In this document: positions 19,611-60,211 of the stretch, piece after piece
Position numbering within the stretch: position 1 is the first letter of the stretch
Layout: every line of letters starts with the position of its first letter
The notes under the pieces: model-generated
The model's database searches: none
The model's input: the letters and a program-made list of their open reading frames with translations, nothing else
Told to the model about the DNA's origin: nothing
Source of the DNA: Patellaria atrata CBS 101060
Lineage: Eukaryota
Length of the DNA: 64,000 nt
NCBI GenBank assembly: GCA_010093705.1
Contig: MU006098.1
Coordinates: forward strand, 355,981 to 419,980
Direction: 5' to 3'
Made by a program: the position numbers and the translations under genes

Positions 19611-19975
19611 GAATGTCTTTAGTGCTCGGGCGTAGGATATTACTGCTGTGGTCCTGGTGTAGGAGTCATGGGTTTGATTCTTTCTTTGTAGCAGATACTG
19701 TTAGACGGACAAATATAAATATCAATCATGCTTCTGCAAATACTTGAGTGACCTGCAGCTTGGTAAATTGAGAAAAAGTTAAGAATCTAAGGAATTTTAA
19801 GGAGAACACTAGATCACTTGTCTGCATCGTCATAATCCTTATGTTTTACTCACAAAGTATCCCCGTCTACACCACGTGAGACTCCCGCGCAGATTATGTC
19901 AGTAATTGTTCAAACAAAATCCCTTCATTAAACAAGCACCTTATAAGTACTCAAACCCTGATCACTTTCAATTCT

Positions 19976-20159
19976 GGCGGCAATAGCTGAGCGGTGGCAT
20001 TTCCTTTGTCATATTTCCTTCAGTCAATTTCCTATCAGTCAAATTTCTAAGTCTTAAGTTCGAGCCCCGGCTCCGCCAGAATATAAAGTTAAATGCGTTC
20101 GCCGGGTTAACTTTCCCTCTTCGGAGGTTTTCTTTTGCATTTTTTTTCTCTTTTTTTTT
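19976..20159 (+). ncRNA. Candidate Pol III unit 1: degenerate tRNA-like head plus hairpins and oligo(T)
   Basis: TATAAG 19942; A box TAGCTGAGCGG 19984; B box GTTCGAGCC 20058; GGCGG(19976)/CCGCC-A(20073-20078) acceptor-like pairing; stem AAAGTTAA/TTAACTTT; CCTC-TTCG-GAGG 20116-20127; T8 at 20140 and T9 at 20151. Confidence 0.55.
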
Positions 20160-20492
20160 AAAAAAAAATTCCTCTAAGGTTCTAGGTGTGAAAAGAGGTG
20201 ATAGGGAAGGATAAAAGAGAAAGATCTCATGGACACGTATGAAAACACGTTTATGAGTGCTATGTCACCACACGCTTTGTGAGTTTGTTGAAGCCCATCA
20301 AGATCAGGAATCACTCTTTTGCCACGTCAGAAGCTGTCATAAAAGTGCTATATAACTCTAAAATAAACCCGCATCACCATTAGAGACCTCATAAGAAACC
20401 GAATCCTTCTATCAAGTAACACTTTATCCCTAAACTGTATTCCGAAACATCTACTTATTCAAAACCATAACAACACCACAACCAAGTTCAAC

Positions 20493-52910: not shown

Positions 52911-55900
52911 ATGGATGCCCAGGTACGTATTGGTAGCAACCGTGGTAGGGACTCTATACTGAAGCTCATACTGACTATGATGTTGTATTAGATAGAAGAA
53001 GCCGTCCAAATTGCATGGAATCCTGGCTCGAATCAAAACCTGAAATCTCAGGCGTTCAACTTCCTCAATGACCTCCGCGCCGATACCTCTGCATGGCAGG
53101 TCTGCCTATCGCTCTTCACACGCACACATCGTCCCGCAGAGACAGTAAGACATTATTCGCTTGAGATTGTCAATAATTCTGTCCAGGCCCAGCAACTGGA
53201 TCCACAGAGCCTTACTTTCATAAAGGACAATCTTATGAGCTATATAATACAGAACTACGGCCAAACATCAAATGCTGTAGACACCCCACATATCCAGAAC
53301 AAGCTTACTCAGACAATAACATATCTATTTACCTCTCTATATGCTTCATCTTGGAGAAGCTTCTTCGATGAATTTCGGGCATTATCTGGGGATGAGAACG
53401 CCATTGGTATAGCGAATCCTGTTGGCACGATTCTCTACCTCCGCATCTTACAGTCGGTACATGATGAAATAGCAGATGTTCTAGTTGCTAGGTCTCCGGA
53501 AGAGCAGAGACGGAATACCGAATTGAAAGACATTGTGCGAGTCCAGGACGCGCAGAAGATCGCCTTATCATGGCAAGAGATTCTAGCTAAGTGGAGGCAG
53601 GTAGAACTACCAGTGATTGAGATGTGTCTCAAGACCGTCAGCCGTTGGGTAAGCTGGATTGATATATCTCTAGTTGTAAATCAGGCAATTCTCAGCGCCC
53701 TCTTCGACATCGCCGGAATACAAGATGTCTCTCCGAGCGAACCGAAGCGGGCGATTGTTAGGGACACTGCAGTAGACACGTTCACCGAAATAGTGGCCAA
53801 GAAAATGAAACCTGCGGATAAGATCGAATTACTTATAGTGCTGAATCTGAACGCTATTGTCAGTCAACTGGTTTCGAGTCCTGCGCTCTCTGATCTCAGG
53901 ACGACACCAAATTACGATGTTGACCTTGCTGAAGCTGTGGCGAAGCTGGTTAATACTGCTGTATTTGACATTGTTAAGGTTCTAGAAACCGATTCGATAG
54001 ATCCAACACTATTCCAACGCGCCGATGAACTATTGCAGGCTTTTGTTCCCCATCTACTGCGTTTTTTCGCGGATGAGTATGATGAAGTCTGCTCAACCGT
54101 GATTCCTTCCCTTACAGATCTTTTGACTGTCTTTCGCAAACTTGTCAAAGTCAAAGGAACCCTTCCTTCGCATTTCTCTACTATGCTTTCGCCTATCTTG
54201 AACGCTATCATCTCGAAAATGAAGTATGACGAGACGGCCAACTGGGGGGACGAGGATGAGGAGACCGATGAAGCTGAATTTCAGGAGCTCAGGAAGCGGC
54301 TTCTAATCCTACAACAGTCAATTGCAATTGTTGACGAACAGCTCTACATGGATACCTTGAGCAATGTTGTTGGTACTACCTTTAATAGAATCACAACAAA
54401 AGACTCGAGCTTAGATTGGAGGGAACTGGACCTGGCATTACACGAGATGTACTTGTTTGGGGAACTTGCTCTTAAGAATGGTGGCATGTACGCTAAGAGG
54501 CAACCTTCTTCCATAGCGTCCCAAAGATTGGTGGAGATGATGTCGAAAATGGTCGAGTCTGGTGAGCGAAATGGAAGTGATGCGAGAGTCCTCTGCTAAC
54601 TTGCGGATAGATATTGCATCCTTCTGGCACCCTGCTGTTCAACTACAGTATATGGAGATTTGCGTTCGATATTCATCGTTCTTCGAACATAACGCACACC
54701 TAATTCCAAAGGTTCTGGAGCAATTTGTGCGCATCACTCACGTTTCTAATCGGGAATATCTAAAAGTTCAAAGTCGTTCGTGGTATCTTTTCTTACGGTT
54801 CGTTAAACCATTACGCATGCATCTTGGAGGTGTTTCACAAACCGTCATCCAGGCCATTGGAGATCTATTGACCATAAAAGCCGAGTTACCAGAGGACTCT
54901 GGGGACGATGATATGTCTTCAGACGAAGCAGATCATTCCGCGGATGCGATCTTCAACAGTCAACTTAATCTATTTGAAGCAATTGGCTGTATTTCTTCTC
55001 CACCCTCCGTTCCAATTGAAAACAAGGTTTTGTACGCACAGTCAGTTTTGAATCCCCTTTTTGCCGATTTAGAGCAAAATTTGGCACAAGCCAAAAATGG
55101 AGACGAGCGAGCAATCTTACAAATACATCACATCACAATGGCGATTGGTACATTGGCCAGAGGATTTTCAGATTGGACTCCTGGATCATCTGGCGCCCCT
55201 CCGCCAACTCGGCTATCCGAAGAATTTGCACGAGCCGCTGAAGTCATCCTAGTTGCTTTGGAGTCTTTAAGATCATCCATGAACATCAGGACGTCTGCCC
55301 GTTTCGCGTTCTCCCGATTACTTGGTGTTCTTGGATCTCGAGTGTTACAGCAGCTTCCTCGGTGGATCGACGGACTTCTATCACAAAGTTCTACGAAAGA
55401 TGAAATGGCCACATTCTTGAGGCTCCTTGATCAAGTCGTCCACAGTTTCAAAACTGAGATCTACGGCATCCTTGATACTCTCTTGACACCATTACTACAG
55501 AGAGTGTTTGCTGGGTTACAAGAGCCCACTACAGGCACCGATGATGAGATACAACTCGCTGAGCTTCGCCGCGAATATCTCAACTTTCTTCTCATCATTC
55601 TTAACAACGAGCTTGCCTCTGTGCTTGTTAGTGGTGGTAAGCATCCCAACGGCGATTTTTTAATCTATTCACTAAGTTAAACAGGCAACCAACAAACCTT
55701 CGAGTCCATTATCACTACTATCGAACACTTTGCCCGGGATTCAGCTGATTATCCTAACGCTCGTCTCGCAATTTCCGTTCTCATTCGCATGACTGTTGTC
55801 TGGGGTGGCCTAGATGTCCCTCTACCAACAGCTGCTAATCCGACACCGTTGCAACAGCCATCACCCACTCTACCTGGTTTCGACTCCTTTGCCACGACTC

Positions 55901-56175
55901 GTTTCTCGCCTCTGTGCTGGAGTATACTAACAACTCCTGGTTTCAGCCCCAAGGATCCTCAAGCTAGGCAGTTATTACTGGAAGTTGCAGGGTTACAGCG
56001 TGAAATATTGAAGAAGACGGGTAGTGCATACCTAGATAGGCTGAGGGAGGAGCTCTCAGGGATCGGCGTTCAAGAACAGGGGATGGATGAGTATCTTGGT
56101 GCTTTGGTGAACAAGGACGATAAAGGATTCAAGCAGTTTTTCCTGCAGTTTATTGGTCGTGCTACTGGAGGCTAG
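52911..56175 (+). CDS. LOS1: Exportin-T (tRNA nuclear export receptor); introns near 52923-52991, 54563-54610, 55637-55684
   Basis: [86 protein letters not shown]. Confidence 0.93.
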
Positions 56176-56228: not shown

Positions 56229-57157
56229 CTACTCAATTTCCATCCTATCGCCCTCCATCTCCAAGGCTCCCTGCTTTGCCCTGCGCAGAACACGCTTGGT
56301 TTCGCGCATTTCCGCCTTAAGTCTTTCCCGTACGACATCGAAAATGGCGTTTTCGAAATTGGTGTACGGATTAAGCTGGTGCGAAATTCTCGTGCTTCCC
56401 ATGCTCTGTACTAATTCCTCCATCGTCCCGACTTGTGCATCCTGACTGCCAAAGCCCACAAACTCCACCCATTCGAACTTCATGGTCTTGTACCGGGAGA
56501 GCTCTATGGCGCGATGCCATTCCCCCTAGCTTGGGCTTCCTGGATCCTCTCTATTATAGTACGCCACCAGTTTTCCGTACGATTGAGTCGCATTTGGAAA
56601 TTGTGACGTTGGTGTTGCGTCATTTCCTGGGTAGGGAGGAGATTCAAGTCGGGTCCGTACGTATAGACCCCTAGTACGAAGTACTCGCGGGCGGTGTAAA
56701 TATCGGGATGGTATGTTGCCTTGTAGAGAGCCTCATAGTAGATCTTATGTACATCCTGTACACCGCGTCCCTCAATCCAGTCCGTCCTCATGAAAAATTG
56801 AAGATACTCAAATGTCAGCCGTACCGTATCGATAGCCCTATCCGTTGACTACCTGGAATCGACGCCGCGGAATACGCAAATCCTCATGGCCTCAAGGCTC
56901 ATATCGTGATTCAGCTCGGCCCCATATCGCTCGAATTCGTGATGTACACAGAGCTGATCACTGGGAGTACAGCCGGGAGGTGGCTGGAGGTTATAGTTAC
57001 GGTACGCCTTGATCTCCTGCTTGTGCAGGTTGAGATGACCTTCGATAGCCATAGAGCCCAATCCCTATTTTCCTCAGTCAGTATGATAAAGGATGAATAT
57101 ACAGGCATGACTTACTCTTGTTGCAGGATCATTCAGGTTTTCAGTTTGAGAAGACAT
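56229..57157 (-). CDS. Hypothetical protein, 2 introns, one-base frameshift at the C5 run 56522-56526
   Basis: Exon 1 57157-57116 (GTAAGT donor), exon 2 from 57064, exon 3 from about 56786. One extra G gives QARGEWHRAIELSRYKTMKFEW and joins the 56229-56483 ORF. Confidence 0.62.
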
Positions 57158-57440
57158 GATTGGCGTATAGAAGTGATATTAATATGAGCAGGAAGGTAGA
57201 GTTTGTTGAGATATGAGAAAAAGGTGGGTTGAAGTGAGGTTGAAGAAGTTGGTTGCAGAAGCGGCGGAGGAGGCAATGAATAGGCAGCCCAGCGGGAGGT
57301 CGAGCATGTGATGGAGCAGGTCCATGAAGGTAATGAGAGTGACTGCAAACCGGTATTTGTATTGGAAATGTATCCCGCCGTTGGTTTTTCCGAAACCGCG
57401 TCGATGCTGTTAGTTTATAAAAGGTTTGGTAAAATCCTGA

Positions 57441-57754
57441 GCCTCGGTGGCCCGGGAGGGGCCACGCGTGATTGCAGCACGCGGGGGTGGGTTCGATTCT
57501 GGTTTATCACTGATAAGTTCACTTTCTCTCACTAATATATTCCCTAAGAACTACTAATCTACTTCAAATCAGACACAGATCCCGGAGGCTTAGGCTCCCA
57601 GGACCCGAGGATGACTCCAATACGCTTGTACTGGGTCAAATATCCTCGAAAACTTCAATCAAATAACTTTTGTGGGAGATGACAAACCCTCGCAAGAGAG
57701 AGATGTACCACACACCCTTCGGAGTGTGTGGGAAAACTTTTTTTTTTTTTTTTT
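57441..57754 (+). ncRNA. Candidate Pol III unit 2: tRNA-like head, four hairpins, T17 terminator
   Basis: TATAAAA 57416; A-box-like TGGCCCGGGAGG 57448; 5-bp/7-nt arm GCGTG-ATTGCAG-CACGC; B box GGTTCGATTC 57490; hairpins 57584-57598, 57606-57648, CTC-GCAA-GAG 57689-57698, CCACACAC..cTTCGg..GTGTGTGG 57708-57731; T17 57738-57754. Confidence 0.62.
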
Positions 57755-59036
57755 CCTTTTTGATCATTCAAATAGCATATACTTTAAAATTTATAGATGG
57801 AATTTATTTACGACTTGAACTTTGATTCACAAGATTAACTCTGACTGATAAGAGACTTTTTGGTGGTGTGTTACGGTCGACAGGTTTGACATTGGATGTG
57901 AGAAATCCTGATATTACCAAGTCCTACACGTTCTGAAATGCACAGCAACATCCCCAAACCTAAAACGAACGAGTATCTTCAAATACGATGATTGAGCGAA
58001 AGAATATCATGCGACATACTTTATCAACCTGCACGATCTATCGCAGAGCTGCTGCGACACTTTTTCGGTACCTATGAAATGACTACGGTCTGACAGTAGC
58101 AAATGCGACAAAGCTAGAAGTTCAATTGTTACTAAAGGCTGCTTCAAGCCTTTCTTTCCAGACTGCGCAAAGTGTTGATAAGCAAATCTGCTCTTGCGAG
58201 ACGGTGCCTTACGATTGAATGAAGGGCTGGTTGACGCGGAACAGTACTCACAATCGCTGAGGAATGCTTAAGGTAAGATAATCATGTCTACTTCAGCAAC
58301 TCAAGGGATTTGAAGCAACTTAGAGCAGCGAAATGAAAGCATTTACAAGTAGATAGGACGTTCTCTGATGCTTGATAGAGAGGTGTGGTCAGTATAATCA
58401 TTATTCAGACGAGCGTCAACCGAGTTTTACAAAGCTTACCATAATTAGCATGACAGTTTGGATTATTACAGAACTTACAGAAGAGATGGGCTTACAAGAA
58501 GAACTAAGAGGTGTGATTACGGTATTTAATCGCTTAGAGGTAATTATGCTAAACGCCAGAGTGATGGGATGAATGATTGGCTGGTGTATCACATATCCCC
58601 TGCAGTAACAACTCTCCGTTCTCTAGTCAGAGACCAGTCAGATTTCTGCTCTGCCATTTCTGCCGCTCACTATGCACCCAGAATCCCAGATCATCGCCAT
58701 CTTTCTCAGCGAGCACTCGCTAGCTTTAATGCGCTCGTCTCCCCTCTACGAGCGAAGCTTCGTTCGAATCCCCTTCGCGACTGTTGCTGTCTCCGTGCAA
58801 CTCACCTCGTCGCTCCCTTATCTGTGTCGACGGGAAACAGCACAGCAACAACTATCGTCGTTCTGGATACGTCGTTGAGAAGAACCCCTTTCTGCGCCTA
58901 ATCTACGTCCCCACTTCGACCTGTCCGGCTACCCGACAGAGGCCCGAGTCGAGTCCTACAAACGGCCCAGAGTTCATAAGGCTTAGACAAACTACAGGGA
59001 ACTAAGCTTAGAAGAACAGTCGTGGTAGAAACAATC

Positions 59037-60211
59037 ATGGTCTTCATACAGAAGAAATGGAGATTTCCTAAGTTCGTATGGGGTCTGGTTATACTGGAAT
59101 TCCCTTTGACAGTCGCCGCCCTCGCACTCTTCGGAATCGCCTCGCCAAATCTGTATCGCACAAAGTTATGGCAAGAGGGCGCGGATCTTGGATTCAACAG
59201 CGACCCGAGCATTATTCTATATGCATATGCGAATTATAAACCGATTGATACGCCAGTGGTATGGAGCAAATTGTACGTCGCGCTATGATCAAAACGTTGA
59301 GCCACCAGATGCTAACGTACTTTTATAGTATGACACAGTTCAATCTTATCATCTCTGTGCTCAGCATGTTCATTCTTCTCGTCAAGACGACGATGTATGT
59401 CATGCATACCTTCATACCATTAATATCGTTTCTCGTACACGGTCTCCTCGTTGGCCTCTATGCTTATAGCGTCTATATGCAATCTGCGCCGGACAAGAGT
59501 GATCCAAAACACCCTTCAAATGGCCCACCATGGTACGTCACGAAGAGTTGTTCTCTTTCGAGCACAGACGAGATTGAAGGATACTGCGAGCAAGCAAAGG
59601 CGAGCTTCTACGTCACTTGCGTTATGCTGTAAGTTACTGTACCCTATGGACCAATTGCACATGTCTGACAACAGTTAAGCGCTCTTTTCGGCATCCATAT
59701 CCTTTGGTCTATCTTTTCGTCCATCCCCACCAAAGAGCAGAAACTGGCACGTCTGTCCAAACTAACTGCTTCCCCCGCCTCATATTATCAAGAGAAGTTC
59801 AGCAACTCTCCCGAAACTGAGATCCCTGCAGAGCATCAATGGGAACTACAACAGATGGGAATGCAGGGCATGTACACTCCTGGTACAACAGGTGCTATGA
59901 AGAATCCAATGAGTAGTCGCAGCGTCGCATTTGGGCAGGGCACATTACCTGAGCACCCTACGACGCCGCGCACGACAGCATTCCAGTCCTTAGGGGGATA
60001 TTATTCGCCGCTACCACCACAACCCTATTCTTCACCGCAACCCCAGCCGGTCTCAACACAACCCTATTATTCACCACAGCCACAGTCGGTGTCACCACAC
60101 CCTATACCGACATTGTCAAGGACATCGACTGCTGGGAGCACGGGCAGTAGGAGTGCGGGAGGTATGGGTAACGCATTACCATTGAGAGAACGTTATGGTG
60201 ATGCAGTGTAA
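59037..60211 (+). CDS. Fungal multi-pass membrane protein with P/Q-rich tail, 2 introns
   Basis: LEFPLTVAALALFGIASPNLYRTKLWQEG..FNSDPS..LYAYANY, FNLIISVLSMFILLVK, PPWYVTKSCS..GYCEQAKASF. Introns near 59273-59328 and 59629-59679. Confidence 0.82.

Follow-up and report, generated by a model that had tools for sequence, protein, structure and literature searches.

Known Pol III units with tRNA-type promoters

To our knowledge, the set of fungal Pol III transcripts is poorly charted outside budding yeast. In Saccharomyces cerevisiae, the genes RPR1 (RNase P RNA) and SNR52 (a C/D snoRNA) carry A and B boxes in a 5′ leader segment and end at a T run. Single-copy Pol III genes that belong to no conserved family are represented by rodent BC1 and by yeast RNA170 and ZOD1. 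The 5′ domain of BC1 is derived from a tRNA-Ala gene and folds as a stem-loop, not as a cloverleaf; the middle of the gene is rich in A, a T run closes it, and it serves as master gene to a SINE family.

For filamentous fungi, the milRNA precursors of Neurospora, the one well-studied case, appear, by analogy, to be the nearest documented precedent for the locus described here. In this fungus Pol III transcribes the major milRNA precursors, and milR-4 is co-transcribed with two tRNA-Ala genes; in the sequences of milR-1 to milR-4, TATA-like elements, putative A and B boxes and a poly-T run are indicated by the legend of Figure 2 (PMC3547838). The tRNA-derived SINEs of fungi, for example AfuSINE2 of Aspergillus fumigatus (PMC5063351), are a different kind of unit, in which an unrelated body comes after a tRNA-related 5′ part with A and B boxes.

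We analysed a candidate unit of about 340 bases (57413–57754) in a window of 64 kb, by which we mean the whole stretch of DNA at its full length. As in RPR1 and SNR52, A-box-like and B-box elements precede a non-tRNA body in the candidate, and a T run closes the unit; the bodies differ, since that of the candidate lacks any Rfam match and any C/D or ACA arrangement and can be classed neither with RNase P RNA nor with the snoRNAs. With BC1, RNA170 and ZOD1 it would share the character of a low-copy Pol III gene outside families, and with BC1 in particular a 5′ domain possibly derived from tRNA-Ala that does not form a cloverleaf, as well as the T run. It is set apart from this group by kingdom (rodent BC1), by the absence of any sequence relation and, in the DNA contigs of the source organism, by the absence of a SINE family like that of BC1.

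The comparison with Neurospora crassa milR-1 to milR-4 goes further, in that both come from a filamentous ascomycete, are intergenic, have TATA-like elements, putative A and B boxes and poly-T arranged around a hairpin, and show a link to tRNA-Ala; in milR-4, however, genuine flanking tRNA genes are cut off by RNase Z, whereas the head of the candidate unit has neither an acceptor nor a T stem (PMC3547838). In addition, the hairpin arms of the candidate are only about 20 nt long. In contrast to SINEs of the AfuSINE2 type, which have tens of copies, the candidate has about one to two, lacks target-site duplications and ends in T17 instead of an A-rich tail.

Genomic setting of the candidate unit

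The GC content across the window is 0.41–0.49, and the window looks like part of a filamentous-fungus chromosome bearing genes with short introns. The genes that define the setting of the unit are as follows:

53235–56175, plus strand: exportin-T (LOS1), in three ORF pieces
57157 down to about 56229, minus strand: small gene with its ATG at 57157 and an intron (GTAAGT...ACTGAC...TAG) after codon 14
from near 59261, plus strand: next convincing coding region, by ORF reading

The divergent genes on either side leave an intergenic space of about 2.1 kb, in which the unit lies; no ORF longer than 74 aa overlaps it. Its nearest neighbour is the minus-strand gene 56229–57157, whose ATG is 260 bp away and whose three exon-like pieces gave no Pfam family match. 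A reading of this DNA made earlier from the letters and their open reading frames (the sequence-only reading) had named LOS1 and ESP1 as the flanking genes; the assignment of LOS1 holds, while a Pfam search with the available part of the ESP1-labelled ORF (from 60776) gave no match.

Promoter-type elements and the T run

Four elements, listed in the order in which they occur on the plus strand, suggest a Pol III transcription unit:

57416–57423, plus strand: TATA element TATAAAAG, by sequence reading, some 25 nt ahead of the presumed transcription start
57448–57461, plus strand: A-box-like element TGGCCCGGGAGGGG, within the 7-bp hairpin 57447–57465
57490–57499, plus strand: B box GGTTCGATTC, the sole exact GGTTCGANTC in the window
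57738–57754, plus strand: T17, putative Pol III terminator, by sequence reading

Most of what the sequence-only reading had claimed for these elements proved correct, namely the TATA element (57416), the B box (57490), the T17 tract and the absence of any T run of five or longer between the B box and T17, where a T4 is present at 57668–57671. Its further claim of A-box-like and B-box elements at tRNA spacing stood in part: the distance from the start of the A-box-like element to the B box is 42 nt, which is tRNA-like, but the A-box-like element fits only a relaxed pattern. The criterion applied was TRGCNNAGTGG at 30–60 nt upstream of the B box. Because the relaxed pattern fitted by TGGCCCGGGAGGGG occurs 31 times in the window, counting both strands, the match carries little information.

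The remaining elements differ in how much each says by itself. The sequence at the TATA site, TTTATAAAA, is nearly palindromic and lies 260 bp upstream of the ATG of the minus-strand gene, so the element could equally serve that divergent gene; TATAWAW as such occurs 36 times on the two strands of the window. The spacing between the TATA element and the A-box-like element is 32 nt. In yeast tRNA and U6 genes the corresponding spacing is longer, roughly 45–50 nt. The B box agrees with the consensus GGTTCGANTCC at 10 of 11 positions, and as a single motif it is no more than expected by chance (one observed against 0.53 expected, with at least one in 38 of 100 shuffles). T17 is the longest homopolymer in the 64-kb window, the runners-up being T9 and A9. 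Its exact length is uncertain, since the Logan contigs from both DNA runs of the source organism break at the tract, stopping at 57723 and restarting at 57766. Long poly(dA:dT) tracts are also common in the intergenic promoters of fungi, which counts against a Pol III reading.

Taken jointly, the elements go beyond chance. We defined a composite signal as TATAWAW 55–100 nt upstream of a B box, with the first downstream T run of five or more being at least six long. This composite occurs once in the window and in none of 300 dinucleotide shuffles, in a test that was framed after the site had been seen and is thus post hoc.

The GC-rich head

The predicted fold of the segment between the TATA element and the B box has the following parts:

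57441–57488, plus strand: GC-rich head, in the MFE fold a 5-bp closing stem (57441–57445/57484–57488) around two adjacent hairpins
57447–57465, plus strand: perfect 7-bp hairpin GTGGCCC-GGGAG-GGGCCAC, by reading and MFE
57466–57482, plus strand: anticodon-arm-like hairpin with stem GCGTG/CACGC (57466–57470/57478–57482) and loop ATTGCAG, by reading and MFE

The 7-bp stem, the anticodon-like arm with its central TGC and the absence of an acceptor or T stem had all been noted in the sequence-only reading, and we find them as described. In the arm 57466–57482, the loop AUUGCAG has 7 nt, U33, the triplet UGC, which corresponds to Ala, and a purine at position 37 (A37). The description of the domain as a tRNA-like head did not survive: ARAGORN found no tRNA genes in the whole window, the Rfam tRNA model found nothing at E values up to 10 even when the search was restricted to the 91-nt head, and the fold of the head (−27.8 kcal/mol) does not stand out from shuffles (z −0.84, with 36 of 200 shuffles folding equally well). 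A tRNA gene was accordingly rejected for the locus, which has no acceptor pairing, no tRNA call by ARAGORN or Rfam and no cloverleaf. Since the head has no acceptor or T stem, cutting by RNase P or RNase Z is not expected.

RNA structure downstream of the head

Folding of the body of the unit gave four hairpins or helices:

57578–57605, minus strand: hairpin of 11 bp, including three G.U pairs, with loop CUAA; it forms well on the minus strand only
57606–57648, plus strand: hairpin of 16 bp with loop GCUU, whose upper part is the core common to a second locus
57667–57698, plus strand: 10-bp helix (57667–57676/57689–57698) with three G.U pairs, formed on the plus strand only and spanning the T4 at 57668–57671
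57708–57731, plus strand: 3′-terminal hairpin of 8 bp with a C.A mismatch and a C-G pair closing a UUCG loop

The hairpin 57606–57648 is significant, with −18.6 kcal/mol on the plus strand (z −3.65) and −23.1 kcal/mol on the minus strand (z −4.99), in both cases against 0 of 200 shuffles. The cUUCGg hairpin 57708–57731, which ends 6 nt ahead of the T run, reaches −15.2 kcal/mol on the plus strand (z −2.78, 3 of 200 shuffles) and −16.2 kcal/mol on the minus strand (z −3.20, 1 of 200). For 57578–57605, the minus strand gives −18.6 kcal/mol (z −2.90, 4 of 200) and the plus strand z −0.17. The region 57660–57740 folds at −26.9 kcal/mol on the plus strand (z −4.02, 0 of 200), compared with z −2.31 on the minus strand, and the MFE structure of the plus strand uses the helix 57667–57698 in place of the CUC-GCAA-GAG hairpin (57689–57698). 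The sequence-only reading had proposed four tetraloop hairpins on the plus strand; those with GCUU and cUUCGg loops hold up (z −3.65 and −2.78, respectively), whereas the UUAG hairpin (z −0.17) and the GCAA hairpin, which is outside the plus-strand MFE structure, do not.

In a sliding scan with 80-nt windows from 57001 to 58380, all windows with z of −2.5 or lower fell within 57401–57780, with the exception of 57221–57300 on the plus strand. Their placement indicates that the excess of structure is bounded by the TATA element and the T run. Inside the unit there are three islands of structure, with z from −2.6 to −4.4, and the flanks are near 0. Several of the helices depend on G.U pairs, which places them at the level of RNA and not of DNA palindromes. 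The exceptional segment 57221–57300, a purine-rich stretch between the ATG of the minus-strand gene and the TATA element, folds on the plus strand at −23.6 kcal/mol (z −4.64) and has z +0.81 on the minus strand.

These results bear on the possibility that the locus makes no dedicated RNA. In that case a divergent promoter region would contain a B box that is an 'extra TFIIIC' (ETC) site or there by chance, a poly(dA:dT) tract (T17) that keeps nucleosomes away, and hairpins that are palindromic cis-elements or products of chance. In yeast, ETC sites are found between Pol II genes that diverge, a setting similar to that of the unit in its roughly 2.1 kb between divergently oriented genes, and a B box by itself is expected 0.53 times per window. 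On the other hand, this account does not predict the composite signal (0 of 300 shuffles), the confinement of the three structure islands to the unit while its flanks stay near 0, the helices that need G.U pairs and so belong to RNA, or the conservation of a hairpin core at a second locus (see below). We consider a locus devoid of its own RNA to be of low probability.

Strand of the putative transcript

Over its whole length, the unit folds at −95.1 kcal/mol on the plus strand (z −2.04, 3 of 100 shuffles) and at −101.5 kcal/mol on the minus strand (z −3.43, 0 of 100 shuffles). For 57570–57652, z is −4.37 on the minus strand versus −2.66 on the plus strand. Structure does not fix the strand, because the minus strand folds as well or better. 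Wobble pairs leave it undecided too: according to the dot-bracket count, the minus strand has five G.U pairs where the plus strand has A.C mismatches (three in 57578–57605 and one in each of the two strong hairpins), against three G.U pairs confined to the plus strand, all of them in the helix 57667–57698. Two of the loops, UUCG closed by a C-G pair and GCAA, read as stable tetraloops on the plus strand only. The plus strand is favoured by this tetraloop identity and by the order of promoter and terminator elements, with the minus strand as a live rival. The statement in the sequence-only reading that the tetraloops are correct on the plus strand is thus right as to loop identity and finds no backing in the fold statistics.

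Transcription from the minus strand would mean that the structure belongs to a Pol II transcript, either a long 5′ leader or an upstream ncRNA of the gene with its ATG at 57157, and that the presence of the B box and of T17 (there read as A17) is incidental. The better fold of the whole unit and of 57570–57652 points in this direction, as do the minus-only hairpin 57578–57605 and the internal mismatches of the two strongest hairpins, which are A.C on the plus strand and become G.U on the minus strand; moreover, an intron-bearing minus-strand gene begins 260 bp from the unit, and a TATAAAT on the minus strand at 57795–57789 lies just upstream of A17. A leader of about 600 nt beginning with A17 would nevertheless be unusual, the helix 57667–57698 with its three G.U pairs exists only on the plus strand, and the surrounding region 57660–57740 also favours that strand (z −4.02 versus −2.31). 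Such a transcript would explain neither why a TATA element, an A-like box, a B box and T17 occur in the right order and orientation (0 of 300 shuffles) nor why the structure halts exactly at the TATA element. On balance we think a minus-strand Pol II origin improbable.

Known RNA families and a second genomic locus

No Rfam family matched anywhere in the window at the gathering score, and the search of the hairpin region gave no matches at all. With E values up to 10, six sub-threshold matches to unrelated families appeared in the window, the best at 24.9 bits against a gathering score of 52.1. RNase P/MRP, SRP, U6, 5S, 7SK, Y, vault and snoRNA families were rejected as identities of the unit, none giving an Rfam covariance-model match at the gathering score; resemblances to the SRP Alu domain, 5S rRNA and the conserved regions of RNase P were also considered and were rejected as the Rfam models came back empty. 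Among snoRNA models the best match was snoR138, at a sub-threshold 17.8 bits against 44. A C/D snoRNA was rejected on inspection, as the motifs GGAUGA (57609–57614) and AGAUGA (57677–57682) have no CUGA downstream, the sole CUGA of the plus strand being upstream at 57510, and an H/ACA snoRNA was rejected since reading revealed no ACA ahead of the T run. The sequence-only reading had seen no hallmarks of U1–U6, U3, SRP, RNase P/MRP or 5S RNA, and the absence of a significant Rfam hit leaves its idea of a Pol III RNA standing.

None of the sequencing runs found to contain the unit is recorded as RNA. The copy number was estimated from contigs of two DNA runs of the source organism (X1 and X2) at a likeness of at least 80%, with the X1 results read whole. 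In a third run, X3 (organism B), the share of matching words was small (0.06), and no contig could be aligned with the unit. X1 contains three matching contigs, two of which are the unit locus itself, broken at the T run, and the third a 2397-nt contig from elsewhere in the genome. The depth of the latter is 317.7, compared with 310–326 for the unit locus, which is the depth of single-copy DNA. X2 gives the same contig ends for the second locus as X1. Most of the 31 X2 contigs are short, and those listed fall within 57586–57709; they are probably error bubbles beside the long homopolymer and not copies. The part of the unit shared by the second locus is:

57604–57638, no strand assigned: 35-nt core, with three differences from the 2397-nt contig of the source organism

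By our estimate, a match of 32 of 35 nt greatly exceeds what chance would give in a fungal genome; the second locus is accordingly a diverged paralogue. Hand reading of its 30-nt flanks shows two further stretches in common with the unit, TTAGGC ahead of the core and AATCAAAT behind it. At the second locus the core's 5′ end and the 3′ flank can form the pairing CCCGAG/CUUGGG; the corresponding pairing in the unit is CGAGGA/UCCUCG (again by hand reading, with the three differences unplaced). This hints that the hairpin, beyond mere sequence, may have been kept at the second locus.

No other copy of the unit is present within the 64-kb window, and no direct repeats, i.e. target-site duplications, flank 57413–57754. 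A multi-copy SINE was rejected on these grounds, there being one other 35-nt match only in the DNA contigs of the source organism, no target-site duplications and a tail of T17 that is not A-rich; a MITE was rejected because terminal inverted repeats are missing. High copy number with target-site duplications, the sign of a SINE named in the sequence-only reading, is thus absent, and this check too leaves the idea of a Pol III RNA standing.

The weakest of the alternatives, and an unlikely one in our view, is that the unit descends from a tRNA-Ala-derived retroposon (SINE) or from an old segmental duplication and is now an immobile and functionless remnant, with the second locus as another decayed copy: tRNA-type spacing of the A and B boxes, the Ala-type anticodon arm in the head and the 35-nt core with short flanking motifs at the second locus all agree with it, but X1 has a single other 35-nt match at 80% likeness or more, direct repeats are missing from the flanks, the A/B-box strand ends in T17 with no A-rich tail, neutral decay would presumably have broken the 7-bp, 5-bp and 8-bp stems, all of them intact, and the lower stem of the conserved hairpin is, by hand reading, apparently maintained by different sequence at the two loci. 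Families of tRNA-related SINEs with target-site duplications do occur in Aspergillus fumigatus and lend the relic some plausibility (PMC5063351).

A candidate Pol III RNA gene and its possible product

We regard the unit as an unproven candidate for a Pol III RNA gene that belongs to no known family. Our leading interpretation, to which we give somewhat less than an even chance, is a single-copy, lineage-specific Pol III unit on the plus strand that would combine a promoter domain derived from tRNA-Ala with a conserved hairpin. That the locus is transcribed, by which polymerase, from which strand and between which ends, and how the product would be processed and used, we infer in every case. 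The sequence-only reading had gone as far as a possibly undescribed Pol III ncRNA or small-RNA precursor. The composite signal, the empty Rfam searches and the low copy number argue for this proposal; the head, two of the four hairpins and the fold of the plus strand do not.

In such a unit, TFIIIC would sit on the B box (57490) together with the weak A-box-like element in the head, and TFIIIB on the TATA element (57416). The head may descend from a tRNA-Ala gene and, no longer folded as a tRNA, would act as promoter and perhaps also as a structural domain. Transcripts would begin near 57441 and terminate in T17 (57738), with a possible leak at the T4 at 57668. In the predicted product of about 230–300 nt, the cUUCGg hairpin together with an oligo-U tail would protect the 3′ end. 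The hairpin 57606–57648 would be the working part, since its core is the sole piece kept at the second locus of the genome.

As to function, our first guess, by analogy with what Pol III makes in Neurospora, would be a milRNA-like precursor of hairpin small RNAs. A milRNA precursor should offer a stable hairpin beyond chance, and 57606–57648 provides one on both strands (0 of 200 shuffles on each). Its arms, at only about 20 nt, would make it a short substrate for Dicer, which counts against the milRNA reading. An alternative function, also by analogy, could be that of a stable protein-bound RNA like rodent BC1.

A more specific version of this interpretation, possible in our judgement though unlikely, is a small lineage-specific family with at least two loci, in which a two-hairpin promoter domain derived from tRNA-Ala was joined to a conserved hairpin some 43 nt long. 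The members of this family could be counterparts of the BC1 type or self-contained Pol III milRNA genes whose tRNA part has degenerated to a pure promoter.

If verified, the candidate Pol III gene would, with its degenerate tRNA-Ala head, illustrate how tRNA genes become promoters of new RNAs by exaptation; it would also be a further candidate for a small-RNA or RNP gene and would supply a compact native pair of Pol III promoter and terminator for the expression of guide RNAs in the host fungus. If not transcribed, the locus would be a curious promoter-region sequence and nothing more.

Relatives in metagenomes and in the literature

A search with the LOS1 exon retrieved 12 metagenome loci at 58–74% identity. 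Their LOS1 flanks were compared up to 10 kb on each side, or less where the contig was short. By tblastx, the C-terminus of LOS1 was matched in 11 of the 12 loci, and the minus-strand gene, the flanks of the unit, the downstream gene and the ESP1-labelled ORF in none. LOS1 alone is thus common to these loci, and the gene order around it is not conserved at 58–74% protein identity. Comparison of the unit with the 12 loci yielded one 16-nt match at E 6.1 with blastn and nothing with nhmmer. The 12 loci contain no tRNA genes, nor is there a B-box unit downstream of LOS1 in any of them; the two B-box matches found are both on the opposite strand, one of them at a contig end.

A 25-nt piece of the core gave no matches among metagenome contigs. 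The 25-mer of the core likewise has no occurrences in published papers, and none in nine supplementary files of PMC9757828, a re-analysis of fungal hairpin sRNAs. In a title-level search we found no title on a Pol III ncRNA with a tRNA-like leader in filamentous fungi.

Another Pol III-like unit in the window

A second Pol III-like unit, probably the one that the sequence-only reading had counted as its first, is located at 19940–20168 and begins with CTTATAAG at 19940. Neither an ARAGORN call nor an Rfam match above threshold was obtained for it, the sub-threshold Rfam matches being to unrelated families. It has a 7-bp acceptor-like pairing of CTGGCGG (19974–19980) with CCGCCAG (20073–20079), an exact A-box match TAGCTGAGCGG (19984–19994) and, 73 nt downstream of the A box, a B-box-like sequence AGTTCGAGCCC (20057–20067). 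A CCTC-TTCG-GAGG hairpin (20116–20127) follows, and after it come T8, T9 and A9 runs (20140–20168). Conceivably it is a tRNA gene, intron-bearing or aberrant, followed by a long trailer.
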